IMG/VR virus record: IMGVR_UViG_3300037010_002844
Location: 64,001 to 128,000 of that record
Reading direction: 5' to 3' (one strand)
From: a virus
Length of the DNA stretch: 64,000 bases
Shown: piece by piece, positions 10,068-47,400 of the stretch
Layout: each line of letters opens with the position of its first letter
Position numbering within the stretch: position 1 is the first letter of the stretch
Position numbers and translations under genes: made by a program
Notes under the pieces: generated by a model
What the model was told of the DNA's origin: nothing
The model's database searches: none
Seen by the model: only the letters and a program-made list of their open reading frames with translations

Positions 10068-11198
10068 TTACGTGATTTCCCTCAACTTCCAGACCGTCGT
10101 CGACGCGCCAAAGTCGTCCCTCTTGACCTCGGCACAACACAGGATGAAGGGGTCAGGAAGCTCCTTGCCGCCCCAGACAGAAATCTTCGTGGCCTTGCCA
10201 GTGGGTCCAACCGCAAAGATTTGCACATATTCCTTGCCATTGCGGGTCTTCTTCTTGATGCCCGTCACCGGCTTGCCACCCTTCTTTGCAGCAACAGGGG
10301 CCGTGACAAACCAGACGACCGCCGTGTCACCGTGCTCCAGGTCGTCAATGCTATTGACGCCCTTCTTCTCCAAGGCAGCCAAGATTTCGATGTCAATCAT
10401 GGCGGTGACGTCCAAAGCACCGAAGACGTCGACCATATTTTGAGCACGTTCAGAAGACGACCAGTCCTCGATGTCAGCGTAGTCCCTGACCAACTGGTAG
10501 AAGTTCTTAAGGCCCTCGTGCGGGTCAGACTTCGGGTGTCGCTTGATCAACGCCCCGTGATCGATGTCGACCTCTTCGGTGACCTCGACGCCCTTGCGCT
10601 TCTTGGTCACGGTCTCCACGTGAGAACCGAAGAGGACCTCGTGCATGTGATGATAGTTGTTGAAGACCTTGCCTTCGCCCACGATGTCCATACTGCCGAA
10701 GGCACCGATCTTGACCAGGGCCTCCATCGCCTTCTTGTTGAACTTGCTGTGTTTCCACTCGAAGTTGTCATCCCACAGCAACTCCTCGATAGTGTTGTAG
10801 GGACGGTTGGCCATGATCTCTTCGACCGCCGAGTCGCCGACACCCTTGCAGGACGTCATCGACGGCATCAACTTCTTGCCGGGCAGCGCGGTCCACCCGA
10901 GCCCCGCCAGGTTGATGTCGATCGGGACGATCTGATAGCCCAAGGCCTTTACCTCGCTGAACGCCTTAGCACGTTGAGCAGGAGTGTGCGACATGCTTTC
11001 GAGATAGGCACACAGCCATTCCTCCTCGTGATATGTCATCAGCCAGGCGCACCAGAAGCTGTCAATGGCGTATGCCACTGCATGGCTGTTAGACGTCAGT
11101 ATCCCGTTAGCGAGATAGAACTGGTGATCCGGGTGATCGACTTCGAGGTCATAGGTCTGGTGTCGACCCACGGGTGTGATAGACTTGATGTTACTCAT
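10068..11198 (-). CDS. dnaE: DnaE (Pol III alpha) fragment 8 of 8: C-intein 7 plus the C-terminal extein.
   Basis: C-intein 7 at 11088-11198 is MSNIKSITPVGRHQTYDLEVDHPDHQFYLANGILTSN. The extein at 10071-11087 starts SHAVAYAIDSFWCAWLMTYHEEEW, which matches the DnaE KSHAAAYA helix onward. Confidence 0.85.
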   Translation of the reverse strand: MSNIKSITPVGRHQTYDLEVDHPDHQFYLANGILTSNSHAVAYAIDSFWCAWLMTYHEEEWLCAYLESMSHTPAQRAKAFSEVKALGYQIVPIDINLAGLGWTALPGKKLMPSMTSCKGVGDSAVEEIMANRPYNTIEELLWDDNFEWKHSKFNKKAMEALVKIGAFGSMDIVGEGKVFNNYHHMHEVLFGSHVETVTKKRKGVEVTEEVDIDHGALIKRHPKSDPHEGLKNFYQLVRDYADIEDWSSSERAQNMVDVFGALDVTAMIDIEILAALEKKGVNSIDDLEHGDTAVVWFVTAPVAAKKGGKPVTGIKKKTRNGKEYVQIFAVGPTGKATKISVWGGKELPDPFILCCAEVKRDDFGASTTVWKLREIT

Positions 11199-11419
11199 GT
11201 GAGCAGGTCCTTCAACAGGTCTTCGATCGCTCCTGCGTTCGGTTCATCAAGCATTGCTTTAGCATACTCTTCTTCAATGTACTCGTCAGTCGGCTGGAGT
11301 TCAACCTTCGTTTCGCTTTTGCGTCGGTAACGTGCCGCGGCCCGTAACAGTTCGATCGGACTCAGACCCATGCGTTGGGCAATGTCATTCAGTGCGATTT
11401 CAAACGGCGGTCTTTTCAT
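11195..11419 (-). CDS. Small hypothetical protein (possible HTH) inside the intein-7 gap.
   Basis: 74 aa, with IALNDIAQRMGLSPIELLRAAARY. Overlaps the neighbouring genes at both ends. Confidence 0.4.
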   Translation of the reverse strand: MKRPPFEIALNDIAQRMGLSPIELLRAAARYRRKSETKVELQPTDEYIEEEYAKAMLDEPNAGAIEDLLKDLLT

Positions 11420-12449
11420 ACGCTTTTCCTATCCGATGAACGCCAGGTCGAGGATCTTTCAGGATCTCAAAAAGCTTTTTCAAGCAATCAGGTTCGAAGC
11501 GACCGCCATCCTTGTATGAGAACTGATCGTAAGAAATTCGAATGAGTGTCCAATCATGTTTAGTGATGTAATCATCAAGCATTGCATCCATGCACTTCAC
11601 TCGTTCAAAATTATCCTCGCCTTTAATACGTGCATTAAAATGGATGATTCCATCAAATTCAACATAAATGTGTCTTGATCGATCGGCAATGTCAACTTGC
11701 TTTCTTTTAGATTTGTTTGGAAAAGCAACTGACTTGACGACCTGATTATGAACAAAATCATAACCTTCAACGTTTTTCAACAAATCAAACAACGCTAATT
11801 CCGGAATGCTATGCCAAATAGCATGTGCAGCTTTTGTGCACTTTTCGTAGAACTCATCGGGGTTCAACTCACGCCAACGGGCCAGGCGCTCAGCACGTGC
11901 CTTGAGTATCTCAGGCCGGGTTGACGTTAGTCTTGCAACGTCTGATGAACGTTTACGGGCTTCAGGTCGTCGATTAAGTTCTCCCATTAGTTCAGAGCGA
12001 CGTTTCCTCTCGCCCGGATTGCTCGTGATGGCCTCACTGACCGCACGGCCCATCTTTTCCTTGTAGGCAGTCAAATCATCACCGCGTGCCTTCGCTCGTT
12101 TGAGCCAGGCGAAATTCTGCCCACGATGCTTGAAACGCGCTGTCGAGACTTTCGATGTGATTGCGGCAGTCGGGTACGCTTTCAGGTATTCTTCTTTGCT
12201 CATACCATGCGTCCCCGACAAGTGCTTTGCCAGTGCCTTACCCGTGAAGCCACAGACTTGGCATGTGACACTCTCACTGTCACCGAGTATGAATCCTTGG
12301 CACCTAGCTTGGTGTTTTTCGTAGGCCTTCAGGTAGACGAAGAGCCTGCTACATCGGTCACAACGATGCTGAGGCCCCGTTCGGCAATCATCCACAGGGG
12401 CAACATCTCGTTTGTCTCCTTCGTCCTGAACTTGTGATCCCACGTGCAC
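11400..12449 (-). mobile_element. Free-standing homing-endonuclease gene in the intein-7 gap (MucR-like zinc finger plus a DUF559/Vsr-like PD-(D/E)XK domain).
   Basis: CQVCGFTGKALAKHLSGTHGMSKEEYLKAYP resembles the Ros/MucR finger. The C-terminal SIPELALFDLL...QVDIADRSRHIYVEFDGIIH resembles the DUF559/Vsr-like nuclease core. It lies between N-intein 7 and C-intein 7. Confidence 0.65.
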
Positions 12450-13030
12450 TTTACCTTCTCTCCGGTCACCAACTCCACTTCTACCAAGTCTAGCTCACCG
12501 TGGTCGTGTTTTGCAACAACAGGGACGAGGATGTTTTTACCTGAATTCTCATCACGAGACATGACCAGGTCGCCGGGTTCGATGTGTTGAAGCTGCTTTG
12601 TCTCTTTGAACGTGCCGTCTGAAAAAAAGGTATTTACTGGTTCCGAAAAGTACAAACTTTTATTGAAGCCGTAGCCCGCGAAGTACAGAATCTTGTCGTA
12701 GAGGTTGTTGGCCACCTTCTCGGTATAACCGTTGGCGATGCAACCCTTGACGAACCCGTCACGGGTCTCTTGGGCTGCCTTCTTTGCCGCCTCACCGCCC
12801 GAGATGCTGCGCTTCATGATTGCGCGACGGACCTCGTCACACTTGTCCTTCGGGAAGCCGGCAGCCTTCTCGGCGAGTTCCATCACCTGTTCCTGAAAAA
12901 TTATGCAGTTATGCACGAGAAGGCCATTTGCGAAGAAGTTGTTGTTCTTCTTGACCTGGATGTCGTACACAGGCTGTGCAGGAACACGCTTGATCGCACG
13001 GATCTTGACGGGAACTACGTCAGGCATCAC
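12329..13030 (-). CDS. dnaE: DnaE fragment 7: C-intein 6, extein, N-intein 7.
   Basis: C-intein 6 at 12908-13030 ends PVYDIQVKKNNNFFANGLLVHN. The extein at 12659-12907 is CIIFQEQVMELAE...DEVRRAIMKRS...ILYFAGYGFNK. N-intein 7 at 12332-12658 is SLYFSEPVNTFFSDG...CTWDHKF. Confidence 0.85.
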   Translation of the reverse strand: MMPDVVPVKIRAIKRVPAQPVYDIQVKKNNNFFANGLLVHNCIIFQEQVMELAEKAAGFPKDKCDEVRRAIMKRSISGGEAAKKAAQETRDGFVKGCIANGYTEKVANNLYDKILYFAGYGFNKSLYFSEPVNTFFSDGTFKETKQLQHIEPGDLVMSRDENSGKNILVPVVAKHDHGELDLVEVELVTGEKVKCTWDHKFRTKETNEMLPLWMIAERGLSIVVTDVAGSSST

Positions 13031-13344
13031 TTACGCTCCGTTTCACGATGAGTCTGACAAACAATGTGTAATGACATTGAGCGCGACAAAGCATCACTGC
13101 CTAGAACGACTCGGCAAGGGTTGAGATTTTCCCCCACATGACGCATCCATTCTTGCAAAGCGTTGATCAATCGTTGGGCTTCGTTGAAACCCTCATGCGA
13201 GGGTGGAAACTGACAGCAACCTACCAAATCTCTAGTCCCAGGATCATATGCAATGATTCGCAAATTCCCATGAACGTTCATCTCTAGCGTTAGAGATCCA
13301 TAAACATCGTCATCGATCTCGCTAGTGTAAAGATCTGCGCTCAT
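13027..13344 (-). CDS. Hypothetical protein (cargo ORF in the intein-6 gap).
   Basis: 105-aa ORF with an ATGA-type overlap to fragment 7. No motif recognised. Confidence 0.45.
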   Translation of the reverse strand: MSADLYTSEIDDDVYGSLTLEMNVHGNLRIIAYDPGTRDLVGCCQFPPSHEGFNEAQRLINALQEWMRHVGENLNPCRVVLGSDALSRSMSLHIVCQTHRETERK

Positions 13345-13345
13345 A

Positions 13346-13591
13346 TCATTTTTCTTTCATGTTCAATGATGATGCGCAGAGTTGGCACACTGGTCCATCA
13401 ACACTCAAAACACGTTGACCATGGTATTCGAGCTCCATATCATTTCCGACCTCTTCATAAGCTCGAAATGTGTCGAACCAGTCGGCATACGTGAGATCAT
13501 CACGCTTTCCAAATGCCGTATGTGACTTCATCGTGTTGATAAAGTTCTTGAACGACGTAAGCAACTCCTCTTCAAAATCATCAATCTTCAT
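13346..13591 (-). CDS. Hypothetical protein (cargo ORF in the intein-6 gap).
   Basis: 81-aa ORF starting MKIDDFEEELLTSF. No nuclease motif. Confidence 0.45.
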   Translation of the reverse strand: MKIDDFEEELLTSFKNFINTMKSHTAFGKRDDLTYADWFDTFRAYEEVGNDMELEYHGQRVLSVDGPVCQLCASSLNMKEK

Positions 13592-13662
13592 GTCTAAATT
13601 GTCCTCAATTTGAGGTGATAGTTCAAGGCATCAGACTCCCAGACGCGGTACACCGTGAAGCC

Positions 13663-13842
13663 TCAAGTTCTTGTGGCAAGCGTCCATAATTGATCAAGCC
13701 TAAATTGCTTCTTCATCGCAGGTGTTAGTTCATGCTTCGCTGGGTTACTGTGCCAATAGTCGCCGTCGTACTCGATGATGAGGTTGAGTGATGGCACGAC
13801 GAAGTAGCCTGGTTTCAGTACTTCATTCCCAAAATCTCGTCT
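13663..13842 (-). pseudogene. Remnant of a Vsr-like homing endonuclease.
   Basis: My translation of a start-less open stretch is RRDFGNEVLKPGYFVVPSLNLIIEYDGDYWHSNPAKHELTPAMKKQFRLDQLWTLATRT*. The IEYDGDYWHS core matches AIECNG(V/L)YWHSE of the two intact endonucleases at 15352 and 17837. Confidence 0.6.
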
Positions 13843-14414
13843 TCAGACGTCAGTTCACCTGCTTGCACCCAACCACGAGGCGTCATGACAAGGTGATCTT
13901 CAGTCAAAGACAAAGTTTCTCCACCCTCCAGCTCAACCTCGATGATGTCACGTACGCCGTTTGAGGCGACAGCGACAACTTCGTCCATCTCGACGGTCTT
14001 CGTCATTTCATTGTATGACGGAAGCTTAGTTCCCACCATTCCTTGTTCAACGATTTGTCTAATGGGAACCTCACCTTGCTCAGTAAGGATATGTGTGTCA
14101 CCCGTCAAACACGAGTATGTCTTCTTCAGGATGTCGTTGACGCGGTGATCGCCCCACTCCAACTCCTTGCCGTCATTCTTCGCCTCCAAGTACAGTCGAT
14201 CGACTTTGGCGGCCAAGGGACCCGGGCGATAGATGCTGGTCAGCGTCGCGATGTCGATGATGCTCTTGGGCTTGCCTTTGACAAAGAGTCGCTGAGCGCC
14301 CTGGCCCGTGCAATTGTGAACAACGACGTCGTTAGCGACGAAATTATGATGATTTCGCACCTCGATGTCGTAGACGTGGCGCTTACCCACGCTGCGTGAT
14401 GACACAAGCTTCAA
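13815..14414 (-). CDS. dnaE: DnaE fragment 6: C-intein 5, extein, N-intein 6.
   Basis: C-intein 5 at 14313-14414 is MKLVSSRSVGKRHVYDIEVRNHHNFVANDVVVHN. The extein at 14112-14312 is CTGQGAQ...LTSIYRPGPLAAK...ILKKTYS. N-intein 6 at 13818-14111 is CLTGDTHILTEQG...LTEDHLVMTPRGW. Confidence 0.85.
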   Translation of the reverse strand: MKLVSSRSVGKRHVYDIEVRNHHNFVANDVVVHNCTGQGAQRLFVKGKPKSIIDIATLTSIYRPGPLAAKVDRLYLEAKNDGKELEWGDHRVNDILKKTYSCLTGDTHILTEQGEVPIRQIVEQGMVGTKLPSYNEMTKTVEMDEVVAVASNGVRDIIEVELEGGETLSLTEDHLVMTPRGWVQAGELTSEDEILGMKY

Positions 14415-14772
14415 GCGTCGTCTCCTTCTTTTCTAGCAACTGTAGGTCATATCCACTGACAAGTGCACACTTGAGCGTCGGATGCAACGTTACGAATGCG
14501 TCAAACTTCTCCCTAGCATCATCACGCCACCAGCCCTTGACTTCCACGTACACCCGCTTAAAGAGCTCCAACGTCGGTCATTGACGATGGAAGATCATGT
14601 ACGCCTCTCTTGTGAGCTGGATCCTGATCTCCTCCTCGCTGAAGCCCTCGTCCATGCAATGACGCCAGTTGTCATACAGGTCGACGACGCCATTCTTTCC
14701 GTTCCCGTTGCCCGCTGAGTGCAGAAAGTACAAAGGGGCGCTACGATGAGCGGAGCGCGTCCGTACAATCAC
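14383..14772 (-). pseudogene. T7 endonuclease I-like homing endonuclease remnant with an in-frame TGA (intein-5 gap).
   Basis: ORFs 14578..14772 and 14383..14571 are in the same frame and are separated only by TGA 14578-14580. VYVEVKGWWRDDAREKFDAFVTLHPTL resembles T7 endonuclease I FVETKGLWESDDRKKHLLIREQHPEL as I recall it. The upstream PD motif is not preserved. Confidence 0.55.
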
Positions 14773-14856
14773 ATGTTGCGGAGTCGTGGGCCTGTTGCGT
14801 CTCTGTAAGGCGACATGGCCACGGTCGCGGCGAAACCTGCGACCAAAACGCCCGCC

Positions 14857-15333
14857 TCACGTCAATCCACGAGCTTCGTAACCACTGCTAGACCCAATCA
14901 ACTCGTCGTCTTCGGTTAGGTGCTGTGCCTCAACCCACCCGCGATTCTTCGTCAAGATGGGATGATCAGCGGTGCAGACAAGCTTCTTGCCGTCGTCGAA
15001 CACGAGCTCGATGCACTCCTTGGGTCCTTGGTCGTAAACGACGTCGACGACTGATGTGGTGAACTGCTGCTTGACTTCATCGAAGACCGTCACCTCGTCA
15101 CCGACATGGACGTCCTTGATCAACTTGTACGAGTCATCGCCCATCAGCACTGCCGTGTCCTGGTCGACGCACTGGAAGATGCCTGCCCACTTGCCTTTCT
15201 CGTAGACCTCGTAAGGTTTGGGATCGGTGAAATCAATGACGGCCGGGTGCATGTGCTGCTCGAACCAGGTCTTGATGTCATTGAATGATACCGCATTTGT
15301 ATGTGCGTCAACGTTAGCAACGACTTTTGCCAT
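14857..15333 (-). CDS. dnaE: DnaE fragment 5: degenerate C-intein stub, extein, N-intein 5.
   Basis: MAKVVANVDAHTN is a decayed block-G-like stub. The extein at 15172-15294 is AVSF...DPKPYEVYEKGKWAGIFQ. N-intein 5 at 14860-15171 is CVDQDTAVLMGDD...CTADHPILTKNRGWVEAQHLTEDDEL. Confidence 0.8.
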   Translation of the reverse strand: MAKVVANVDAHTNAVSFNDIKTWFEQHMHPAVIDFTDPKPYEVYEKGKWAGIFQCVDQDTAVLMGDDSYKLIKDVHVGDEVTVFDEVKQQFTTSVVDVVYDQGPKECIELVFDDGKKLVCTADHPILTKNRGWVEAQHLTEDDELIGSSSGYEARGLT

Positions 15334-15351
15334 GTCTTTGTAAAGGTACTT

Positions 15352-17151
15352 TCACAGGTCCATAACGTACACCGCGTTGGAGCAACCAAAGATCTTAAAA
15401 AGCCTGTGTTCCATCGCCATCTCTTCTTGTGATGCGATCCCCGGAATCGCCCTGACAGCAAATCTATCGATACGATTTTGTCCGTCCGTCCACCAAAACC
15501 TAGGCTGCGTCATGTGATCAAATCTAAAACCAGATAGTTCATACGCCCGGCCAGTGCCACCCAACCTCATGTCACGGTATGTGATCATTTTTTGGTAACC
15601 ATGCTCACGTGACCAATCCCTGGCAGCGTTGATCAACCGCGACATGCCTCCAACGACGATGGTATCGCGGGCCGTTGAAACCCGCGCCAATTCAATTGTC
15701 TTAGATCCCCACTTAGTCTGCTGGTGCGGTTTTCGCAATGTCAATGCACAAATAATGTTTCCAGCAATGTCCTCTAGCCAGAACGAATGCGACGAAGGAG
15801 TGTTTCCATCGAGGTGATTGTTCGCCATGAACTGAGCGGTGATGGCTGGACGACCGCTGCGAAGATGTAGCTTTCGTGCCATCACGCGAGTAGCAAGACC
15901 AAGCTTTACCCTGATCATGCTTTTGATGATGTTTTTCTTTACATCATGGTGCCATTCATCGTCGAAGATATGTAGCAACGACACACCACGCTCAAGAGCG
16001 CGAGTCGACTTGTCTTGGTGATACGATGGTGGAGTACCGGTCGCCTCACTGTGCCAATAGACACCGTTGCACTCGATGGCAATCCTTCCGTTACCTGACA
16101 CGATGTCCAGCTCATAAGGCGCGATTGACTGTCTGTCGTTGGCGATGGCGTTCGAATCGAGCTTGACGAAGAAATCGAACACCTCACGATGCCAGCGAGA
16201 GAAATTAGCCGGGTAGCACGTTGAACACACCTTTCCCTTGTAAAGGACGTTAAAGGGAACAATATCAGGTACGTTACAACTGACGCATGTCACATGCACC
16301 GGTGTTGAGTATCCAGCAAACTCAAATTTTTCGATGTTCCACCTCGACCGCAGTGCATCAACTCGCCGTTCGACCTCTTCGAGAGACAACCGAAAAGGAG
16401 AGTTAGTGCCGTTCTCGATAAGGCGTTTTCTAGTCTCGATGATCGAACGTTTGATATCTTCAGAATTAGCGTTCCGAGACCAATGATTCAAGCGAACGCC
16501 TTCGCCGATCCGTTCTGATCGCCGTTTGATCCTATCGTCAGTTTCTGACGTCTGACCGTGCTGCGTCCAGTGTTTTTCTACTTGCCATTTTTCAGTCAAT
16601 GCTCGAGAGATGTTATGCGCAGCTCTTGTGATAGATTCATTATTTTCTTTAGTTTGTCCTGTTCTCCAGTGCCCGTGTTTTTTGATGAAATCACGACAAC
16701 CTTGTGCGGCCCTTCGAACCGATTCAGACGTTGTTTCTGACAGCCCCTTGTTCCATGCAGGCAATGATTTTGATTTCCGGCTAAGCGCACCTCTTACTTG
16801 AGAGTTCTTCTTGCTACAAACTCCACAGAGACGTTCATATCCCGTTTGAAAGGTCATGAACTTGACCGGCCCTGAACACTGAACGCACGGTCCAGGGTGC
16901 TCTCGAAAAAGAAGGTACGCAGCCTCCGCATTGAGCCCGTGCTTTTTAAGGAGATGTGCGCGGAGCGAATTTAGGCTAGCTTTTCGCAATGGATCATTGC
17001 ACTGTGGGCACCTCGAAGGACACGATGTCATCGCCGGGCCCGAGCTCCCTCGCAAGGATGGTGCCCCTGTTGCTGGTGACGATTCGTTGGTCGCCGTAGA
17101 CGCCTCGTGTCGTTCCATCGTCGAGTTGGATCTCAAACCACCCTCTTTCAT
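15352..17151 (-). mobile_element. Free-standing homing-endonuclease gene (zinc finger, NUMOD3-like repeats, Vsr-like nuclease, conserved C-terminal domain) at junction 4.
   Basis: Contains CPQCNDPL...HLLKKH, WNKGLSETTSESV and TGQTKENNESI repeats, and YELDIVSGNGRIAIECNGVYWHSE. The C-terminus is YRDMRLGGTGRAYELSGFRF...FWWTD...IFGCSNAVYVMDL. It is a paralog of 17837..19570. The true start is probably an internal Met (17118 or 17031), because the track start overlaps fragment 4. Confidence 0.75.
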
Positions 17152-17851
17152 GTCGTTCCTTTTTGATGATGAGCTCGATGGCGCGCTCGATGAGCCGCAT
17201 CGTTTCTAGACCTAGGAGGTCGTACTTGATGAACTCTCCGATCTTCTCAAGGTGTTTATAATTTACGCCCTCGACCCAAGGTGACTGTGGCTCGCGGACG
17301 CCGGCCTTGCCTTTGGACGTCACCAAAGGCATCTTGTTGGGCAAATCGTCTGCAATCAGCACACCACCCGCGTGACGACCGAGACTACGATTCTGCTTGA
17401 AGAGGATCTTGATCGACTCGGCGACGACCGGGTACTTCTCAATGAAGCCGCGAAACGACGGGCTGACCGGCTGCTTACACTCTGGGCTACAGCCCTGGCA
17501 GATGGACTTCGACTCCGGGCCCTTAGGAGCCCTGCAGTGGAAGGCCATGGCCTCATCGTAGGTCAAGACGAACAGATTCTTGTCGTCGCCTTCCTTCATC
17601 GTCGCCTTACGGACCTCGTCCTCGACGGTCCGCGTGGCAGCGTTGGTCTCCTCGAATGGGATGCCGTAGAACTTGCCGATATCCTTTACAAGCGTTTTTA
17701 GTTTGAAACAGTTATAATTGCTGATGGGAACGACGTTTTCCCACCCAAAAAAGTTTCGAAGTTCATCAAGAACCTCATCTCGCCTGGCAAGATCGGTGTT
17801 GTGAACAACGACGCTCTTGTTGGACGCCAAAAATGAATGAACGACCATCAC
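16994..17851 (-). CDS. dnaE: DnaE fragment 4: very short C-intein 3, palm/fingers extein, degenerate N-intein remnant.
   Basis: Starts MVVHSFLASNKSVVVHN (17798-17848, ATG at 17848). The extein is TDLARRDEVLDELRNFFGWENVV...SLGRHAGGVLI...IKYDLLGLETMRLIERA. The tail at 16997-17140 is WFEIQLDDGTTRGVYGDQRIVTSNRGTILARELGPGDDIVSFEVPTVQ. Confidence 0.85.
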   Translation of the reverse strand: MMVVHSFLASNKSVVVHNTDLARRDEVLDELRNFFGWENVVPISNYNCFKLKTLVKDIGKFYGIPFEETNAATRTVEDEVRKATMKEGDDKNLFVLTYDEAMAFHCRAPKGPESKSICQGCSPECKQPVSPSFRGFIEKYPVVAESIKILFKQNRSLGRHAGGVLIADDLPNKMPLVTSKGKAGVREPQSPWVEGVNYKHLEKIGEFIKYDLLGLETMRLIERAIELIIKKERHERGWFEIQLDDGTTRGVYGDQRIVTSNRGTILARELGPGDDIVSFEVPTVQ

Positions 17852-19570
17852 ATGAATCCTAACTCAACTACAGTTGAATTTACATGCGCTCGTTGTGGTC
17901 GAAACCACGAAACGCTACGAGCATTGAAGATCCACGAGGCACGACACAGGCGAGAAGACGCCAGGCCTCCCAAACAGGTGTCAACTTACGCGTGTCCGTG
18001 GTGTGAGGCGTCATATGACAGCGGGCGTAAGTTGACATTGCACTGCACAAAAACGCACCAAAAATCACCCGTCGTTGTGTATGAAACAAGGTACCCAGGG
18101 TGCAGGAAGACGTGCATCGATTGTTGCGACTGGGTCAGGTTCATCGATCAAGAAAAAGGATACCCCGAACGGTGTCCACGTTGTAGCCGAAAACACGCAT
18201 ACGCGTCCAAGGGCACCTCGTCATGGAACAAAGGCCTGACGAAAGACAATGACGAACGCATGTCAGCCAGTGCTGCAAACATGCGAGCTCACTACAAGGA
18301 ACACGGTCACCACAACTCCGACAAGACAAAGGAAAACAACGAAAGCCTTAAACAAAAGGCGGCAAAAATCAGCGACAGCCTGCGGAGGTATTATGCAACG
18401 CACAGCGGCTGGTCACTTGGCCTGACAAAGGATACGTCTAGCATCATTGAATCTCGCAGTAAGAAGATCAGCGCTTCGTTGAAAGGACGATTCTTTAGCG
18501 ACGTAACGCTTGAAAAAATGCGCAAGGCAAAGTTGCTGACGCACGACGAGGTACAAAAACGCCTCAAAGAAAAGCAGCTTAAACTCATTGACGAATATGT
18601 CGATACTGTCACCAAAGCGCGCATCGAATGCACGATATGTTCAACAATATTTGAGCGTTGCGTTGGCGCAGTGTTCAACAACGAGGCCAAGTGTCCCACC
18701 TGCTTTCCGCCTTGGTCAGACAAAACGAGCAGGTGGCAACAGGACGTCTACGCATTTATCCAGACGCTGGCACCTGACGCAGTCCTTAGCGATCGTAAGA
18801 CGCTCGGCGGAATGGAGCTCGACATACTCATTCCATCGCGCATGTTTGCCATCGAGTGCAATGGCCTATACTGGCACAGCGAGGCCGCCAATAGATTTGA
18901 GCACGATCACGCGGAAAAGAAGAGATTGCTGTCCCTCAAAGCCGGCGTATCGCTTTTCACGTTATTTGAGGATGAGTGGCGCGACAAACGACCGATAATC
19001 GAAAGCATGTTGCGCCATCGCCTTGGGTTTTCTACCAAAGTCGATGCGCGTAAGTTGAAAGCAGAACGCTGCGAGCCCGAAGAAGTTCGAGAATTCATCA
19101 ATCAGTGCCACCTCGACGGTCACGTGAGGGCCCAATTTGCCGTGCGATTGGTAACCTCATCGGGCGAAATCGTAGGCGCCTGCAGCCTTAGGTGGGCACG
19201 AAATGGGGCAGACAGAACGACGATTGAGATCGCTCGCCTGTGCTTCAAGCTTGGCACACATGTACGAGGCGGGGTGTCAAAATTGCTATCAAAGGCAAAA
19301 GCTATAGCAAGAGAAAACAATGCAGCGAGGTTGATGTCTTACTCAGACAATCGCTTGGGAGGAAACGGTTATGCCACCTCAGGCATGAAGTTCAACGGTA
19401 CCACAGTCGCTCGCTTCTGGTGGACTGACTTCATGCATCGTTACGACAGGTTCAAGTACCGAGCCAACAAGAAGCAAGGTCTAACAGAAAAACAGGTAGC
19501 GGAGGCTGCCGGCGTTTATCGCATCTATGGCTGTAGCAACTCTCGCTACGTCTTAGACGTCACAGCGTGA
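17837..19570 (+). mobile_element. Homing-endonuclease gene on the opposite strand inside the intein-3 gap (C2H2-like finger, NUMOD3-like repeats, Vsr-like nuclease, conserved C-terminal domain).
   Basis: Contains CARCGRNHETLRALKIHEARH, then WNKGLTKDNDERM and SDKTKENNESL and GLTKDTSSIIESRSKKIS, then MELDILIPSRMFAIECNGLYWHSE. The C-terminus is YSDNRLGGNGYATSGMKF...FWWTD...IYGCSNSRYVLDV. Its ATG at 17837 overlaps, head to head, the ATG at 17848 of fragment 4. Confidence 0.8.
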
Positions 19571-19872
19571 CGCTAATGTCATCGTCAAACTTTGAGGACG
19601 CATTTTCTTTGAGCCAGAAGATGGCGTCAATTGTGCGCTCGTCGGCGTCGGCGTCATCGCACGACGTAGCCCCATAGTATGGGGGCCAAATCGTGCTCAA
19701 ACCCTTTAACGCGCAGTTTGACCTGACAATCTTGAAATTCAGGATTTTCTGCAGCTCTCGTCTGAGCTATTCTTTCCAGGCCAGACACTATCACATCATC
19801 TGCTCGGCAGAATCGCCGTTGTCTGTAAGCTGCACCGCATCAACGTTGCTCGGACACGGTCCCAACTCCAGC

Positions 19873-20610
19873 TCAAATTTCATAGTTGCGCTCGCTGTGG
19901 TCTGTTCTTCTCTTAGACGCGCACCAATCGCTGCAAAAATTGTCTCCTTCGCCACACGCAAGGAACGTGCCAGGAATGACGCCCATGCAATAACCGACGT
20001 CATGTGATGGATCACCTCCACTTAGAATGGACGTATTGAACGGTACCACGTGGAATCTGTGATCGTCTTCAACAGTCAGGTCGACGTATCTAGCGTTGGA
20101 AGAGCCCCAACCACCGTGCTCGATCGATACGACCTCAACGCTGCCGCATGATGCCATCAATTCATCTCCGACCTTAAGGTCGCGGCAGTACACGATGACG
20201 CCGTCAGCTCTGACAAATTTGTGACCGGGCACCACCAAAATGTGGCCCAACGTACCATCATTGGCCCTAACTCTGACCCAGACAGCGTCCTCGAATGGCC
20301 GCAAATTTCTAGCATAGGTCGCAGTTACTGCGTGTGGCATTCCATCGCCTCCCAGGACGACGTCGCCGACAATGATGTCAACAGCTCGCTTATGAGTGCC
20401 GTCTGTCATGACGACAAGATGGTCCTCGTGGACGCAGTCGATATCAGGAGCACCAGAGTTATGTGTCAGCACCCAATCGCTATCGTTGTTGGACACCCAA
20501 AACGTATGCTGGCCTTCGACCTCGATGTCGATGAGTTCTACACTTTCATCGACAACCTCGATAGCTTCAATTTTGGCCGTGCTTGCTGATGAGATGTTGG
20601 GTTCCTGCAT
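19873..20610 (-). CDS. dnaE: DnaE fragment 3: C-intein 2, 7-aa extein, long N-intein 3.
   Basis: C-intein 2 at 20458-20610 ends ELIDIEVEGQHTFWVSNNDSDWVLTHN. The extein SGAPDID is at 20437-20457. N-intein 3 runs down from 20436 as CVHEDHLVVMTDG...VVPGHKF...ARYVDLTVEDDHRF (to about 20053). About 60 unrelated codons follow. Confidence 0.8.
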   Translation of the reverse strand: MQEPNISSASTAKIEAIEVVDESVELIDIEVEGQHTFWVSNNDSDWVLTHNSGAPDIDCVHEDHLVVMTDGTHKRAVDIIVGDVVLGGDGMPHAVTATYARNLRPFEDAVWVRVRANDGTLGHILVVPGHKFVRADGVIVYCRDLKVGDELMASCGSVEVVSIEHGGWGSSNARYVDLTVEDDHRFHVVPFNTSILSGGDPSHDVGYCMGVIPGTFLACGEGDNFCSDWCASKRRTDHSERNYEI

Positions 20611-21532
20611 AGTCCCTGTGCTCTAGATTGGCAATCGTATGGTACAAACCTTGTCGACGAAGTTCACCATAGAAGTCATTCATGTACACGACGTCGATGC
20701 GCTGACCAGACGCCACAACGACTTCCCGTGAACGTGCGTTTGAGTTAAGCAACTTTGAGAAACGCGATTTGCCTTCTCGCACACCTTTCAACTCCACGTA
20801 TCGGTCCTCATCACTGAACCAAAAGTCTGGAGTGTAACACTTCTCTTTGCCATCGATGACAACATGGAAAGACCTATGTTCATAGAATGGCATCTTACCG
20901 AGGTGCAAGCAATATCTGTAGTAGTCGGCTTCGAACGAGCTCTTGAAGTACGGGCTGTTTAGGATGTCGGAACGAAAACACGAGCGTCCGTTCACATGTG
21001 AAGCAACCATATCACGTGACTGTGCCTCGCGGGTGCACCGTTTGGAACAGAACCGCGGCACGTAGCTCTTCTTGGTGACGATCGGTTCGCTACAAACTTC
21101 GCATACCAACGTGTGGCGGTCAAACCTCGATGCAGCGAAACATTTGGGTGAACAGAACCTGCGATTGACGTTCTTCGTTGAGAAAGTGCCTAGACACTGT
21201 ACACATGTCAGTGTACGGAGCTCATTCTTTGTCAGCGCTTTCGCAGTGTACTTGTGCCTGCACGCATTCGAACATAGTTTTCTGTTGTTGTGACACTTTG
21301 GAACGTAGAACTCATCGCCGTACTCGACGCACGTCTTCACAAGCCTCGAGGGCATGGGAGCGTGTGACATCAGCTTCCTGTGAGCGACGGCACACTCATC
21401 AGTGCAGTACGGGCGATGGAGCCTACTACCAGAACCCTTGCAGTTGGGCTCATAGTTGAACTGAAACATAATACCACAGTGTTTACACTGTTTCTCAATG
21501 ATGCTCATAGTGGTACGTGTACAGCTCGTCAC
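20567..21532 (-). mobile_element. Free-standing homing-endonuclease gene in the intein-2 gap (four CxxC...FCSxxC zinc modules plus a T7 endonuclease I-like PD-(D/E)XK domain).
   Basis: The repeats are CKHCG...RPYCTDEC, CVEYG...RKLCSNAC, CVQCL...RRFCSPKC and CEVCS...PRFCSKRC. The C-terminal KCYTPDFWFSDEDRYVELKGVREGKSRFSKL matches the T7 endo I YTPDF...FVETKG core as recalled. Confidence 0.7.
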
Positions 21533-21992
21533 TCGTCGACAGCTCAGATGTATACTTCTTCACAGGTTGTCCATCAGGACCCACTGTCAACCACACATGA
21601 TTTTCAGAACACGTGAACGTAGTACCATTCACCTTCACGCGGTACGTCTTCTCATGTTTTGTGGTCATGGTGAACGTAACTTTACGGTGTGAGCCATCCT
21701 GTGAGACAACGCTGTCACCGACTTTCACGTCTCGAAGCGCGGACGACGAACCATCTGACATCAATACCTTTGTGTCTGGCGACAGACACCTGTGAACGCT
21801 AAGGAATCGCGCGAAAGGCAGGTCCCAGAACAACGGGTCCAAGTCGGTGATGTATAGGACGTAGGCGACCAGAGAGCCACCGCCCGAATTGTGGACTGCA
21901 ATACCTTCCACGTTGTAAGTGTGGCTGTTTTCCACACACAGGTCTACGACCTCACCCTTATACGGTACGACAGTCTTACTTCTGAGCTTCAT
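21495..21992 (-). CDS. dnaE: DnaE fragment 2: C-intein 1, 33-aa extein, N-intein 2.
   Basis: C-intein 1 at 21888-21992 is [35 protein letters not shown]. The extein at 21789-21887 is [33 protein letters not shown], matching the DnaE GSAAGSLVAY..ITDIDP..FERFLNPER region. N-intein 2 at 21498-21788 is [13 protein letters not shown]...CSENHVW. Confidence 0.85.
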
Positions 21993-22076
21993 GATATGCG
22001 TTCGCTCTCTTCATGTAAGCCTTGAGATCCCTGTCTAATAGACATTTGACGAGGATCAGGTAAACTTAGTTGAGTT

Positions 22077-23762
22077 TCATTCAACCTCGATTAGGTCATC
22101 ATCTTCAGTCAAGTGTTGTGCTTCAATCCACCCACGATTCTTCGTCAGAAACTTATGCTCCTTGGTGCACCTGATCTTCTTACCGTCATCAAACTCGAGT
22201 TCTAGCAGCTCCTCATCAACCTGATACCTGAAGATCTGAGTCACCATCTGATCAACACCATATGCATCCTTGATAACGTCGCCCACCTTGATGGTGCCAA
22301 TGGGAGCATGCATGCCGTCAGCCATTAGAACCCGCGTCTCAGGAACGAAACAACCGCGGGCTGGGCCGGTAAGGCACACATTGCGTGCCAGCTCCATGAT
22401 CTTCTGGTAGGAAATGAAGTAGTCAGAGTTTTTCATCACCTTAATGACGCCGAGTTCCTCCTTGAGGCGCGCGATATACTCTGGCTTGTCTTGAAGACCA
22501 CGCTTCACCATGCCCACCTTACAAAGCGAGATGAGGTGATTGAACGAGGTCGTGCCTTCGGGCACCAACAACCTCGTCGGAAACTTGGGCGAACGATCGG
22601 GTGGAATCTCCCCGATGACACTGTGTGCGATATCGTGAGTCCGCTCAATGGCGTCACAGACGACTTCATCGTCATACCAGTCGGTGCCTTCCTTGGAGCG
22701 CTGGTACTCATCCCACATCTGTTGGGCGTTCTTCGGATAGAGCTCACACTTCAGCTCATCCTTCGACTTCGGAATCGCGTCAGGATTGATCTCCTGGTAG
22801 TTCATCCAACCCAGGCGCTTGTAGAGCTCACGGTCCTTCCAACGATCGGGATTATAGTAGTGAGCATCGCCGGTGACGATCAGCTGCTTGTTGAGCCCAT
22901 TGCGACGAGCGAACTCCAGGATCGCGCGGTTGACGAGGTTCTGCGCCGGTAGGCGATTGAACTGCAGCTCGAGGAAGTAGTTTCCTTCGCCGACTGCATC
23001 GACCATGTGCTGGTAGGTATTGCCCACCGCGACAACGCATTTCTCGAGCAGCACAGGGTCACTGAGCAACCGTGCGTCGAGCTCGTCAAACTTGTACTGT
23101 TGGATTTCCTGGAATATGGAGTACGCCGGCATGCCGCCGATACAAGCGCTGCTGACGATGATGTCGCCGCCTTTGGCTGCCTCTTTGAGGACAGCATGGT
23201 CAATGCGCGGGAACTTGTAGAAGCCCTTCAAGAATCCCTTCGAACATGCTGCGAAGATCGCCAACAGGCCCTTCTGGTTCTTGGGCAGAATGACTAGGTG
23301 ATGCCGTCGGTTGACGGGATTGAAGTGTTTGGTCGATTTGGACTCTTCCTCGTTTTCGACAGTCAAGGCGTTGGACATCTCAATGTCCTCAGTCTCATCA
23401 TTTTCATCGATGGTGGCGATGATCTTGGTCTGCAGCTTTTCCTGCTCCTTAGCAAGCTTGGCCGCAACCCTCCTGTCTCCCTTCGCCTGCTCTGCGAGTT
23501 CGACGTCCTTCTTCCATTGCTCCAGGTCGGGATGGTAGTACGCCTCGACGCCGGGAATGTACTTGAACGACTTTCCCTTATTGGCCTTGGCCCACTCCTC
23601 GACCCACAGTTGAGCGTGGGCATAGGAGTTCATGTTCCCGTGCTCGGTGATGGCATGGCCATCGAGCCCGTTCTCCATGCACCACTTGAAGTGTTCATCG
23701 GGATAGCCCAAACCATCGAAGGGCGCATTACGAGAAGCCCGTGTGGTTGTGCAAACCGACAA
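22077..23762 (-). CDS. dnaE: DnaE fragment 1: PHP and N-terminal half, plus N-intein 1.
   Basis: Contains FDGLGYPDEHFKWCMENGLDGHAITEHGNMNSYAHAQ (PHP) and ends ...CLTGPARG, followed by N-intein 1 at 22080-22352 (CFVPETRVLMADG...CTKEHKFLTKNRGWIEAQHLTEDDDLIEVE*). The track start (TTG 23762) is an artefact. The real N-terminus is in another frame (see 23728..23820). Confidence 0.85.
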   Translation of the reverse strand: MSVCTTTRASRNAPFDGLGYPDEHFKWCMENGLDGHAITEHGNMNSYAHAQLWVEEWAKANKGKSFKYIPGVEAYYHPDLEQWKKDVELAEQAKGDRRVAAKLAKEQEKLQTKIIATIDENDETEDIEMSNALTVENEEESKSTKHFNPVNRRHHLVILPKNQKGLLAIFAACSKGFLKGFYKFPRIDHAVLKEAAKGGDIIVSSACIGGMPAYSIFQEIQQYKFDELDARLLSDPVLLEKCVVAVGNTYQHMVDAVGEGNYFLELQFNRLPAQNLVNRAILEFARRNGLNKQLIVTGDAHYYNPDRWKDRELYKRLGWMNYQEINPDAIPKSKDELKCELYPKNAQQMWDEYQRSKEGTDWYDDEVVCDAIERTHDIAHSVIGEIPPDRSPKFPTRLLVPEGTTSFNHLISLCKVGMVKRGLQDKPEYIARLKEELGVIKVMKNSDYFISYQKIMELARNVCLTGPARGCFVPETRVLMADGMHAPIGTIKVGDVIKDAYGVDQMVTQIFRYQVDEELLELEFDDGKKIRCTKEHKFLTKNRGWIEAQHLTEDDDLIEVE

Positions 23763-23820
23763 ATCGTCGGGGCACTCGCACCGAGCTTCCCTTGGCGTCC
23801 TCCTTTCCTTGCTGCGTCAT
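23728..23820 (-). other. dnaE: True 5' end of dnaE (PHP motif I), out of frame with the rest of fragment 1.
   Basis: ATG 23820-23818 (ATGA overlap with the upstream stop) gives MTQQGKEDAKGSSVRVPRRFVGLHNHTGFS, then TAA at 23730-23728. Removing one base in tcg-t-aat would read ...GFSNAPFDGLGYPDEH, the canonical PHP HxH...DG continuation. Confidence 0.7.
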
Positions 23821-24137
23821 TTACCTTCCCACCTTACCTTGTCACGGTACTGTAGACCCAATTGACGGTACTGGACACCGTCAATGACCACGATAGTCAC
23901 TTCAGGAAACTTGATTCGCATCAGTGCAAGCTGATAGCACGCCTTGTCAGACCACCTTCCCTTAATTTCGTAGTACACGCTTTCATCGTGAACGAAAATC
24001 TGGTGTGTACCAAGCCGGCCATGTCGGCGATCTGCGGCAACGTGGCCATACCAATGGGTATCAGCACGCGGAGCCACTTGGGCAGCTTGTTCCAGGTGGG
24101 CTTCAGCTGGGTGACGAGCTATGAAACAACGATGCAA
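23817..24137 (-). CDS. Small T7 endonuclease I-like protein, probably a degenerate homing-endonuclease remnant.
   Basis: THQIFVHDESVYYEIKGRWSDKACYQLALMRIKFPEVTIVVIDG parallels YTPDF...FVETKGLWESDDRKK...HPELDIRIVF. The PD aspartate position is not conserved. Confidence 0.45.
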   Translation of the reverse strand: MHRCFIARHPAEAHLEQAAQVAPRADTHWYGHVAADRRHGRLGTHQIFVHDESVYYEIKGRWSDKACYQLALMRIKFPEVTIVVIDGVQYRQLGLQYRDKVRWEGK

Positions 24138-44404: not shown

Positions 44405-47400
44405 TCACCCGCATTTGCTGTTTCCGCAGTTCATGCAAGTAACGCATCCCTGCTGATAGGCGAGCGACGTCGAGGCACAGATCGGGCAACACTTTTCCTG
44501 CGTTGCCTTGGTCCCATCCACGATGTAGTGCTTGCTCAACGTTCGCGCGATAACCGTCGAGAACGAGAACAGATCGCTGTGCTTGTCCTTGCGGAGCTGC
44601 TCGACGACAAGGTGAACTGGTACTCCATGTCGAAGTGTCATCGACAAGGTTCGAGTGTGCGCTCCGTACAACGGATTGTCGAAGAGGTTGACAATGTCCT
44701 TATAGAGAAGGAAATTGTCGTCCAGGTCGACGCGGAGGTTGTACGTGGACACCCCGTCAGCGTTCTTGCCGTTCTTGATGAGGACGCCCTTCTTGGCCTT
44801 CCTCGGGACTTCAACCTGTTCTGACAGTCCGGCGAACAGCTCGTAAGGCTTGCCGTTCATGAGGCCCACGAAGACCAGGTACTTCTCACCCTTGATCGAA
44901 ACGTGGTGAATGTCACACTCCAGCTCCTTCGGACGCTTCAGAGAGTGAGACTCGGCGATATTCTTGGGTTGGTCCGCCGCTGTCTTCTTCTCGTCCTTGA
45001 TGAGGACGCCATCACGAGAACCATCTCGATAGATGGTGACGCCCTTGCAACCAGTCTCCCAACCGCGCATGTAGATCTGCTTCACCACATCGACCGGCGT
45101 GTCACTCGGAATGTTGGTGGTGTTCGAGATGGAGTGACAGACCCACTTCTGAGCTGCGGCCTGGACGTCGATCTTCTTGACCCAGTCGATGTCATTCGAC
45201 GTGGCACCGAAGTAAGGCGACTTTTCCACGTCGGTCTCACCAGTGACGTCCATCCACTTCTTGAATCCGTGGTGATAGACCGTGTACTCCTGCCACTTGT
45301 CGCCCATGGCGTCAACGAAGTCGACACGAGCATCCAAGTCATTCGGATTGATCTTCTTCCTTCGCTTGTAGCTCAGGAGGAAGGCGGGCTCGCAGCCAGA
45401 TGTAGTCTGGGTCAAGATGGAGACAGAGCCAGCTGGCGCTGTCGTCGTCAAGGCGATGTTGCGACGTCCATAGAGACGATACTGATCACGGAGCTCATGA
45501 TCAGCGTCCATCACTTGTTCAATGAAAGGATGTCCCTCTTCCACCTTGTGGGAAAAAATCGGGAAGGGACCACGATCACGTGCCATCTCAACAGTCGAGC
45601 GGTAGGCACCCAACGCGAGGCCCTTATAGATCTGCTCAGTGACGTTGATAGACTCGTCCGAACCGTACTTGATGTTGAGGTAGGCCAAGGCATCGCCCAA
45701 GGCAGTGATGCCCAAGCCGGTGCGACGACCATTGATTGCAGTGTTGCGGATCTTGGTCCATAGCTCGATTTCGGGCCGCTTCACGTCAGCGGGCTCAGGG
45801 TCATTCTCGATCTTCTGCATGATTCGATCAATGGCCTCGAGCTCCAGGTCGACGAGATCGTCCATCAACTTCTGCGCCTTCTTAACAACATCGTTGAAGC
45901 GCACGAAGTCAAAACTGGCGTGAGGAGTAAATGGATCTCTGACGAAGCGAGCGAGGTTGACGAGAAGCAAACGACATGAATCGTAAGGCGACAGCGTAAT
46001 CTCACCGCATTGTTCGCTAGCGATTATTACGTTTGCTTGATTTTGGAACTGTACAAGCTTTTCGTCACCAACATACATGCACAGTGTGTGCTCTCCGTCG
46101 ACAGTGCCGTTGTACACGTCTTCGACACCCGCGGGTTCAACGCTGATCACGCGGTGATTGTGCAATGCCGCGGCCTCTTTCAGGGCAGACCAGGACGCAA
46201 AACCGTTTTTGGTACCGATTCGTGCCGGCACATCCAAGCGTCGACATTCGGCAACCCACTCTCTTCCCAAGGGCTCTCTACCCAACGTAAACCTAAGTGA
46301 GGTAAAGGCGTCAAGTTGCTGTTTTCGCGTTACTTCTGCACGATCAGCGTGAAGCTTCTTCAGGTTCTCTGCCCGTGCAACGTTCTTATTGGCCTTCCTG
46401 TTTGCGTAGAGGTTGGAACACGAATGTGAGCAGAATGCCTGTTCACGTCGGCAGTACGGCAGCGCGAACATTTCGTTGCACCACTCACACGTCCGGTTGA
46501 CGTACAGCTCACCGTCGATCACATCGACATCATAACCTTCTTCAAGGGCCTGAACGTACGTACGTTGAATCCTCGTGTCGAGTTCTGGTGTTGAGATGTC
46601 GACCTCTCGAGCCGCCCAGCACGACAGGTCGTAGAAGCTTCCCAGCTCGCTGCGACGCCAGGCCGAAAACGACATCGGCAGCGACCGTTGTTTAGCGTAA
46701 GCGTACCACTCGTTCAGTGAAACGCGGCGGCCGAGCGACCGGGTCAACCCCAGCACGTGTTGGCGGATGTCATCATTGGTGACGTTGTCATAGGCACGCG
46801 GATTGTTGGCCCCACCGACGCTCTCGCTCATCTTCGCCGAATATTCAGCAAACTTGCCAGCGACTTTATGAGCAACCCAAAGTTGATCGCCATTCAACAG
46901 CTCGTCGACTCGCTTCCGGGATCCGTCACGCATGATCATCGTGTGGTTTCCGGTGGCCTTAAAAGTGTGACCTCCCTCAATGGTCACCTTGAACACAGGA
47001 ACTCCCTTACCGGTAAGCCTAGGATTCCTCATCAGGCGGATGCCAATTTTTCCTGTGGCCTCCTGGTAACAATAGACCGGCAAGTCCTTGCCTTCGTCAG
47101 CTAGCTGCTTGATGGGCACGTAACCCCTTCCGTCAGCGACGGCGATAAGAGTTTCTCCCGTAATGCACGGGTTGGTGCTCGTCGAGCCGTAACCAAACGC
47201 AGCGTAGGCATCTGCTGGCCCGCGGCGCAGGACAGTGTCCCAGAACAGCAAACCGGGTTCAGCAGATTCCCATGCTGCCTGGATGATCTCATGCCACAGT
47301 TGGCGAGCGTCTACCTGTTCCTCGACGATGTGAGGAACGTCTTTGTCAACTGGAAACCGCAGTTGAACCTGCGTACCCGCCTTAACGGCGTTCATGAACT

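Follow-up and report, generated by a model that had tools for sequence, protein, structure and literature searches.

What is a nuclease of the T7 endonuclease I type, whose founding member resolves branched DNA junctions, doing in the gap of a split intein? The question is raised by a 64,000-nucleotide stretch of viral DNA (IMG/VR record IMGVR_UViG_3300037010_002844, positions 64,001 to 128,000), here called the window, which is a large-phage replication module encoding a DnaB-like helicase, a UvsX-like recombinase, an exonuclease, DnaE and NrdJ. Within its dnaE a split intein ('intein 2') is parted by a gene, the gap gene, whose product joins an array of four zinc modules to an endonuclease I-type nuclease domain. 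Comparison with related loci indicates that the gap gene probably encodes a homing endonuclease of modular build, which stands free within a 'fractured gene' cassette of a large-phage dnaE. With rather less assurance, we put forward the possibility that it belongs to a functional, previously unrecognised structural family of homing endonucleases, in which a T7 endonuclease I nuclease takes its specificity from exchangeable tandem Cys4 (FCS/YacG-like) modules.

The nuclease domain carries the first part of the argument. Its motifs FKSSFEADY…CYTPDFWF…RYVELKG stand beside FRSGLEDKV…TYTPDFLL…IFVETKG in T7 gene 3, read from NC_001604, and E201, D236, E247 and K249 pair in the alignment with T7 residues E20, D55, E65 and K67. 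All four residues are invariant in the 11 close homologues that we aligned, which share 43-78% identity with the window protein; in a set of 62 sequences E201, D236 and K249 still do not vary, and E247 is kept in at least 90%. The gap-gene protein closes with a conserved C-terminal extension (…IPNLExRNY..T.xLI).

How firmly the domain can be assigned depends on the depth of the alignment used. The window sequence alone scores only E=0.15 against Pfam PF05367 (12.1 bits, cut-off 29.1), phmmer with this single sequence found nothing in the PDB, tblastn against 50,697 deposited phage genomes gave nothing better than E=0.3, its weak matches being annotated endonuclease I or resolvase, and a profile of 11 sequences reached T7 endonuclease I at a borderline E=0.009. 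When residues 176-321 of the 11-sequence alignment were set against T7 gp3 with hhalign, the probability was 91% and E=1e-6, with FKSSFEADY paired to FRSGLEDKV, YTPDF to YTPDF and VELKG to VETKG and the four catalytic residues aligned. A profile of the 62 sequences (A5, dominated by the subfamily) has T7 endonuclease I, PDB 1m0d, as its top match at E=2.6e-9, and a wider-set profile matches it at E=1.4e-14; no TnsA or Vsr chain of the PDB appears at E<=1 with either. Because these wider alignments matched 1m0d, unlike the shallow ones, we regard family membership as settled: judged by its profiles, the domain is a member of the T7 endonuclease I family. The original prediction, made by a model from the letters of the window, had given the T7 arrangement YTPDF...FVETKG correctly, and its assignment is now carried by significant profile matches.

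Run over 5.8 billion proteins, the nuclease-alignment profile recovers relatives that already bear the PF05367 label, and among 1.84 billion cluster representatives 1,385 clusters (50% identity) match at E<=1e-3 and 32 at E<=1e-30. PF05367 is matched by 7 of the 11 close homologues and by 40 of 50 wider relatives (best 2e-11), TnsA PF08722 by one of the 50; these relatives, with scores of about E=1e-13 to 1e-8, come from the listed top 150 matches. Among sampled relatives in the matches listed, the nuclease in many cases ends a protein of 200-370 amino acids (aa), and in some it is preceded by NUMOD3, helix-turn-helix or zinc modules; NUMOD3 motifs are carried by other endonuclease I-family proteins. 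For the gap-gene protein itself, a Pfam scan returned no match to Vsr, DUF559 or MTES_1575, none to PF11645 (the I-Ssp6803I type), and no sequence-profile match to the TnsA N-terminal nuclease PF08722. Homologues that appeared to consist of the nuclease alone (the P0019 type, ~163 aa) were set aside as probable gene-calling artefacts, the open frame in L014-L016 extending upstream over the zinc modules.

The model of the nuclease domain (predicted local distance difference test score, pLDDT, 94.2; predicted template modelling score, pTM, 0.89) has a restriction-endonuclease-like fold in the form of an unswapped monomer, and at the level of prediction this confirms the PD-(D/E)XK fold class. 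I-Bth0305I is the top Foldseek match, and structure searches return the general PD-(D/E)XK fold, with TnsA, Vsr and I-Bth0305I among the matches. None of three structure searches with the model lists T7 endonuclease I, likely because each chain of its crystal dimer exchanges its first helix and strand with the other (PMC3424549), whereas the model is an unswapped monomer.

Ahead of the nuclease (residues 176-321 in the 321-aa numbering used throughout) lie four repeats of the pattern C-x2-C-x(13-23)-[F/Y/L]-C-[S/T]-x2-C, spanning residues 16-166. A generic hidden Markov model (HMM) of the module scores each repeat between 2e-11 and 7e-14, which places the repeats beyond chance, and an AlphaFold2 (AF2) model gives every repeat a beta-hairpin followed by a helix; the four modules ending in (F/Y/L)C(S/T)xxC that the original prediction described are thus all present. 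Across the 11 homologues 15 of the 16 ligand positions are invariant. At position 71 in module 2 the window copy alone has Tyr (codon TAC, 21320-21322), where all 10 homologues have Cys. Residues 65-187, the module region, match phrog_1271, phrog_2308 and phrog_15471 (E=2e-16), and phrog_1271 and phrog_15471 are labelled 'HNH endonuclease'. Pfam models for zf-FCS (PF06467), TRASH and YacG (PF03884) give no significant match to the window's own modules; PF06467 or PF03884 is flagged in a few homologous arrays, and YacG scores no better than E=0.37 with the family profile. We infer that each module holds one Zn and that the modules jointly recognise a long asymmetric DNA site. That all four catalytic residues and 15 of the 16 zinc ligands are invariant at 43-78% identity is, on this sequence comparison, a sign of selection.

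The open reading frame (ORF) itself is intact. Its true start is probably ATG 21508 (Met9, MSIIEK), giving a product of 313 aa, because ten aligned homologues line up from that position; one of them opens with Val there, and P0008 has a short N-terminal extension. Read from this ATG in the DNA, the gene overlaps the upstream ORF 21495-21992 by 14 nucleotides, and its 3' end overlaps the start of the downstream ORF 19873-20610 by 44. The homologues across the 43-78% range are free of frameshifts, and the identical protein recurs in independent assemblies and on a 309-kb contig.

The second part of the argument is the place of the gene. The upstream ORF encodes, in order, the C-terminal half (IntC) of a first intein ending …IAVHN, a 33-residue DnaE extein and the N-terminal half (IntN) of the second intein, beginning CLSPDTKV…, with Pfam Hom_end_hint and Intein_splicing from residue 69 on; the downstream ORF encodes the IntC of this second intein (…WVLTHN), the extein SGAPDID and the start of a third intein. 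The insertion site in dnaE reads …FLSVHR↓Cys1…HN↓SGAPDID (arrows mark junctions), directly before the catalytic PDxD motif, and the splicing residues are kept in both halves (…VHR↓CLSPDT… and …LTHN↓SGAPDID). Six related loci share the window's pattern of splicing residues, with Ser or Cys at +1 (seven lineages read in all), and wherever it was read the junction follows the consensus …F(x)RF(L/M)xxx(R/K)↓C-L-x-P-x-T… and …LTHN↓(S/C)-(G/F/Y)-x-PDID. A homologue of the gap gene stands between the N- and C-parts of dnaE at loci L001-L008 and L011-L016 and on the GCA_041443065 contig. When lineages were placed from gene maps or from their own sequence (n=12), the gene was found at the same dnaE site in 11. 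The position of the gene in the gap of intein 2, as originally predicted, is therefore confirmed and also conserved in related loci.

In a few relatives the nuclease is not free-standing. P0190 and P0193 carry it in one frame with IntC and dnaE, the IntC being followed by SK(M/Q)PDIDTDF, and P0190 joins the entire four-module protein to IntC and the dnaE C-part. Locus L020 (1158-5273, JGI 3300031673) is a single ORF of 1,371 codons in the standard code that runs through DnaE, IntN, nuclease, IntC and DnaE; the intein here is contiguous, and the nuclease, with E/PD/ExK kept, makes up its endonuclease domain in the same frame. The same locus holds a second intein with an in-frame Vsr-like endonuclease. 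This in-frame arrangement of endonuclease I-type nuclease, intein and dnaE was seen in AT-rich relatives.

The third part comes from alleles that lack the element. Loci L017-L019 are the closest relatives found in the viral collection, and flanks of 2.8-10 kb were fetched on each side of their dnaE match. In L018 and L019 (75-76% N-extein identity) dnaE is uninterrupted, with 1,194-1,246 codons and without inteins or nuclease; L017 (80% N-extein identity) is uninterrupted at this dnaE site and has the same sequence there. At this position all three have neither intein nor nuclease, and the nuclease gene is absent within the fetched flanks. The empty alleles read …FLSVYR↓KGAPDID…, with Lys at +1, and the DNA of the empty site in L018/L019 is …CTACCGC↓AAGGGTGCTCCCGACATCGAC…; the L018/L019 sequence around …TACCGC↓AAGGG… is the predicted cleavage target. 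The distribution is sporadic, with empty target alleles in close relatives, as for homing endonucleases. The GC content at third codon positions (GC3) is 0.59 in the gap gene and 0.55-0.60 in the intein-bearing pieces, with 0.69-0.77 in core genes; the composition of the gap gene and intein cassette is foreign to the genome. A fixed site in a conserved coding motif, empty alleles, foreign composition and a rescuing intein together make up the signature of a homing element.

On this basis a homing cycle can be proposed. In a mixed infection the enzyme would cut intein-less dnaE alleles (…FLSVYR↓KGAPDID…), with a long asymmetric site read by the array of treble-clef-like zinc modules and Mg-dependent cleavage carried out by the endonuclease I-type domain through its predicted active site, E201, D236, E247 and K249. 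Cutting of both strands by a domain with one active site might proceed by T7-like dimerisation, by transient dimerisation or by sequential nicking. Recombinational repair from the occupied allele would then copy the entire IntN-nuclease-IntC cassette into the cut allele; the occupied allele would be immune because the cassette splits the target, and protein trans-splicing would rejoin DnaE, so that the host tolerates the insertion. Such co-copying of a cassette resembles the 'collaborative' mobility of free-standing endonucleases that lie next to introns.

Several points weigh against this proposal. One member of the family, P0017 (at L010), is not in dnaE, and loss of the cassette from L017-L019, in place of gain elsewhere, would also explain the polymorphism. 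The support for a homing role is comparative, and cleavage by any member is predicted from sequence. The single window sequence falls below the PF05367 threshold (12.1 versus 29.1 bits), and the Tyr71 at a zinc-ligand position of module 2 may have weakened this copy. FCS/YacG-shaped modules elsewhere bind protein or RNA, and DNA binding by the modules here is an assumption.

Tyr71 also leads to another reading of the gene, as a former homing endonuclease that is inactive or decaying here and has been kept through its overlap with the intein-half ORFs or reused as a DNA-binding regulator. The ligand change is confined to this lineage, and elsewhere in the genome two endonuclease I-type genes have decayed and several Vsr-like relics remain. 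Once an element is fixed, its decay is what the homing cycle leads one to expect (bioRxiv 10.1101/2025.01.02.630785), and the gap gene does overlap dnaE pieces at both ends. However, the ORF is full-length with its four catalytic residues and the other 15 zinc ligands intact, the homologues are conserved without frameshifts, and Cys80 and His81 in the module 2 loop could replace the lost ligand, and we consider decay unlikely. The nuclease family's only characterised function is junction resolution (PMC3424549), and phrog_9019, labelled 'Holliday junction resolvase', matches the window protein weakly (E=0.0018); could the gap gene then encode a Holliday-junction resolvase or a debranching enzyme that serves the phage itself, as gene 3 serves T7, and be resident in an intein gap by chance, with no part in mobility?

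An essential resolvase would be expected somewhere in the genomes of the close relatives, yet the gene is absent along with the intein in L017-L019 within the dnaE flanks of 2.8-10 kb. The recurrence of the same intein gap in 11 of the 12 placeable lineages, the in-frame position inside the intein in one locus, the four-module array held in common with homing-type HNH, Vsr-like and endonuclease VII nucleases and a GC3 atypical for the genome all speak against a resolvase, which makes chance residence quite improbable in our view. We give very little credence to the idea that the domain is a generic PD-(D/E)XK nuclease nearer to TnsA or Vsr-like enzymes, its likeness to T7 endonuclease I being a shared motif only: T7 endonuclease I came first by many orders of magnitude in the profile searches, which listed no TnsA or Vsr chain at E<=1, PF05367 outnumbers PF08722 by 40 to 1 among the 50 wider relatives, and fold searches with single chains likely fail to find the T7 enzyme owing to its domain-swapped dimer (PMC3424549). 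The probable identity of the gene remains, in our view, a homing endonuclease lodged in the intein gap.

The closest known systems are the fractured genes, in which a split intein holds a free-standing homing endonuclease gene in its gap (Dassa et al. 2009, PMC2677866; I-Bth0305I/EDxHD family, PMC3239194). dnaE was among the original examples, where the reported insertion points vary among themselves and none coincides with that of cyanobacteria (PMC2677866). The window has the same one-strand layout, N-part with IntN, nuclease gene, and IntC with C-part, in the same type of host gene, and both nucleases couple DNA-binding regions with a restriction-endonuclease-fold domain. However, theirs is a Vsr-like EDxHD enzyme, a type found in two neighbouring gap genes of the window, whereas the gap-gene nuclease, a T7 endonuclease I family member, is of the canonical E…PD…ExK type and has four Cys4 modules as its putative DNA-binding part. 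With T7 endonuclease I (gene 3; PF05367; PDB 1m0d, 2pfj) it has the sequence family and residues E20, D55, E65 and K67 in common; the T7 enzyme is a 149-aa domain-swapped homodimer that selects junctions by structure and has no extra DNA-binding domain, whereas the window protein has ~170 aa of zinc modules, a C-terminal extension, a modelled unswapped monomer and a homing-type locus.

PD-(D/E)XK homing endonucleases are already known in the Hjc-like I-Ssp6803I and the Vsr-like I-Bth0305I (PMC3384342), and what would be new in a homing role is the endonuclease I family alone. I-Ssp6803I is a precedent for a canonical PD-(D/E)XK fold related to a resolvase, the archaeal Hjc, serving as a homing endonuclease; it differs in belonging to PF11645, in being intron-encoded and tetrameric and in lacking zinc modules. 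The phage zinc-module HNH 'homing endonucleases' (phrog_1271, phrog_15471) share the CxxC…FCSxxC repeats, the size and the order of N-terminal array and C-terminal nuclease, but their nuclease is HNH (beta-beta-alpha-metal) and not PD-(D/E)XK. FCS/MYM and YacG fingers (PF06467, PF03884) have the ligand pattern C-x2-C … F-C-S-x2-C in common with the window modules, whereas the targets known for FCS and YacG fingers are RNA or protein and not specific DNA. Reviews count six structural families of homing endonucleases, the T7 endonuclease I family not among them (PMC3384342). In the literature searched, which left most subscription journals outside, we found no description of a homing endonuclease of the endonuclease I family (PF05367), in keeping with the original prediction, by which this fold is not known to serve in homing, and none of an FCS-type zinc module in homing endonucleases.

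If the proposal is true, it would add a homing family whose founder is a textbook structure-selective junction resolvase, and would imply that the addition of DNA-binding modules converts a resolvase scaffold into a sequence-directed enzyme. The family is sizeable, as seen from the 1,385 clusters that match the nuclease profile. Its Cys4 modules would be exchangeable between nuclease types and between free-standing and intein-embedded genes, and the zinc module is a defined candidate for a new DNA-recognition unit; should each module read a few neighbouring positions in the DNA, prokaryotes would have in the array a natural counterpart of zinc-finger arrays, open to re-engineering. The locus also supplies natural allelic split inteins at the DnaE active site, from which orthogonal trans-splicing pairs may result. 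The coordinates of the features are collected in Table 1.

Table 1. Positions in the window of the gap gene, its domains and the features related to it.
Feature	Position	Strand	Details
Gap gene (zinc-module array and endonuclease I-type nuclease)	20567..21532	-	intact; longest ORF 321 aa from GTG 21532
Gap gene stop codon	20567-20569	-	
Zinc module 1	21392..21487	-	C16-x2-C19 … Y-C43-T-x2-C47; all four Cys invariant; module HMM E=3e-12
Zinc module 2	21260..21331	-	C68-x2-Y71 … L-C87-S-x2-C91; module HMM E=7e-14
Zinc module 3	21140..21205	-	C110-x2-C113 … F-C127-S-x2-C131; module HMM E=2e-11
Zinc module 4	21035..21103	-	C144-x2-C147 … F-C162-S-x2-C166; module HMM E=2e-12
PD-(D/E)XK nuclease domain, T7 endonuclease I family	20570..21007	-	residues 176-321
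Catalytic codon E201 (predicted)	20930-20932	-	
Catalytic codon D236 (predicted)	20825-20827	-	
Catalytic codon E247 (predicted)	20792-20794	-	
Catalytic codon K249 (predicted)	20786-20788	-	
Split-intein N-half ('intein 2')	21498..21788	-	Cys1 CLSPDTKV… to …YTYHYEHH; ends dnaE piece 21495-21992
Split-intein C-half	20458..20610	-	51 aa, …WVLTHN, then extein SGAPDID 20437-20457
Single zinc module in NrdJ intein	46409..46495	-	CEWC…FCSHSC; residues 518-546 of ORF 44405-48046
Decayed endonuclease I-family gene	14383..14772	-	between 14857-15333 and 13815-14414, where a different dnaE split intein is parted
Decayed endonuclease I-family gene	23817..24137	-	just upstream of dnaE; recognisable: only ExK half (VYYEIKG…)
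dnaE ORFs	22077-23762, 21495-21992, 19873-20610, 16994-17851, 14857-15333, 13815-14414, 12329-13030, 10068-11198	-	
Vsr-like gap gene	15352-17151	-	577-599 aa for the two; phrog_3339 'homing endonuclease' E=1e-59
Vsr-like gap gene	17837-19570	+	see preceding row
Short Vsr-like fragment	13663-13797	-	IEYDGDYWHS
Short Vsr-like fragment	51064-51462	+	FIEVNGNYWH

The zinc module is also found away from the gap gene, as originally predicted for the NrdJ intein. The module there, CEWCNEMFALPYCRREQAFCSHSC, scores highest of all off-target matches when the module HMM is run on a six-frame translation of the whole window (domain E=0.0018), and it matches phrog_1271 (E=2.8e-4), phrog_2308 and phrog_15471 at the profile positions of the gap-gene modules. 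HMMs of the individual modules did not detect it, whereas the generic module HMM and the PHROG matches did; by these profiles it is of the same type as the gap-gene modules and no recent copy of them. The NrdJ intein covers approximately residues 294-690 of ORF 44405-48046, with Gln, ahead of CGEI, as its apparent last residue; it contains helical repeats and a single zinc module; Pfam and PHROG scans found no recognisable nuclease domain in it. A profile of the four-module array retrieves 106 proteins, mostly of 200-300 aa, in which the C-terminal partner is HNH (PF01844, PF13391, PF13392, PF14279), Vsr-like/DUF559 (PF04480, PF18741, PF03852), endonuclease VII (PF02945) or NinG. Judged from these combinations the module is a promiscuous partner of homing-type nucleases, and together with the NrdJ intein they support, at the level of the family, the idea in the original prediction that such modules are shuffled. 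The tail of ORF 19873-20610 (19876-19960), ending …FLACGEGDNFCSDWCASKRR, resembles half a zinc module, with a non-significant module HMM score (E=3.6).

The window holds two further endonuclease I-family fragments, which had been taken for decayed relatives of the gap gene. That they belong to the endonuclease I family is upheld by BLASTP: the region 14386-14577 matches P0056 (E=1e-8) and T7 gp3 (E=0.01) and also phrog_945 (E=0.005), and the region 23820-24179 matches P0045 (E=7e-9) and a 262-aa protein of L011 (E=2e-5). They belong, however, to a different subfamily, since an HMM of the 321-aa subfamily run on the window detected neither, whereas canonical endonuclease I-family queries recovered both, and on these matches both relics are of a different, more canonical branch of the family than the gap gene. 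In the relic at 14383-14772 a stop codon interrupts the frame and the PD segment is gone, while the ExK half is kept. Intact counterparts of the relic upstream of dnaE exist as open frames of 271-285 codons (262-276 aa as called) directly upstream of dnaE in L011 (1300-2088), L008 (2004-2858) and L017 (9089-9901), and likewise in L012; in each, a linker connects a single zinc module with an endonuclease I domain. The 262-aa protein of L011 passes the PF05367 threshold with 33.2 bits. These frames look like a second free-standing endonuclease I-type element adjoining the same host gene.

The dnaE of the window (10068-23762, minus strand) is split into at least eight ORFs with inteins and gap genes between them, and is one gene in L018/L019. 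The seven extein residues SGAPDID, which hold catalytic aspartates, lie between the C-half of one intein and Cys1 of the next. That next, third intein (19873-20436 and 17800-17851) looks atypically split, its N piece carrying a block-F-like YVDLTVEDDHRFHV and its C piece having only ~17 residues (…SVVVHN↓TD), with a Vsr-like gap gene on the opposite strand. Both Vsr-like gap genes combine a Vsr-like/MTES_1575 core with a C-terminal region that is similar to Mom/GNAT acyltransferases (phrog_1384; weak Pfam Acetyltransf_1). The two short Vsr-like fragments probably stem from additional homing endonuclease genes that have decayed; the one on the plus strand was at first a candidate for an endonuclease I-like gene from a BLAST match and was rejected on its PHROG matches, which show a Vsr-like fragment. 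The N-halves of two other dnaE inteins (22077-22352 and 14857-15150) are 48% identical and have a near-identical tail, TKNRGW(I/V)EAQHLTEDD(D/E)LI, a likeness that suggests duplication or gene conversion between inteins.

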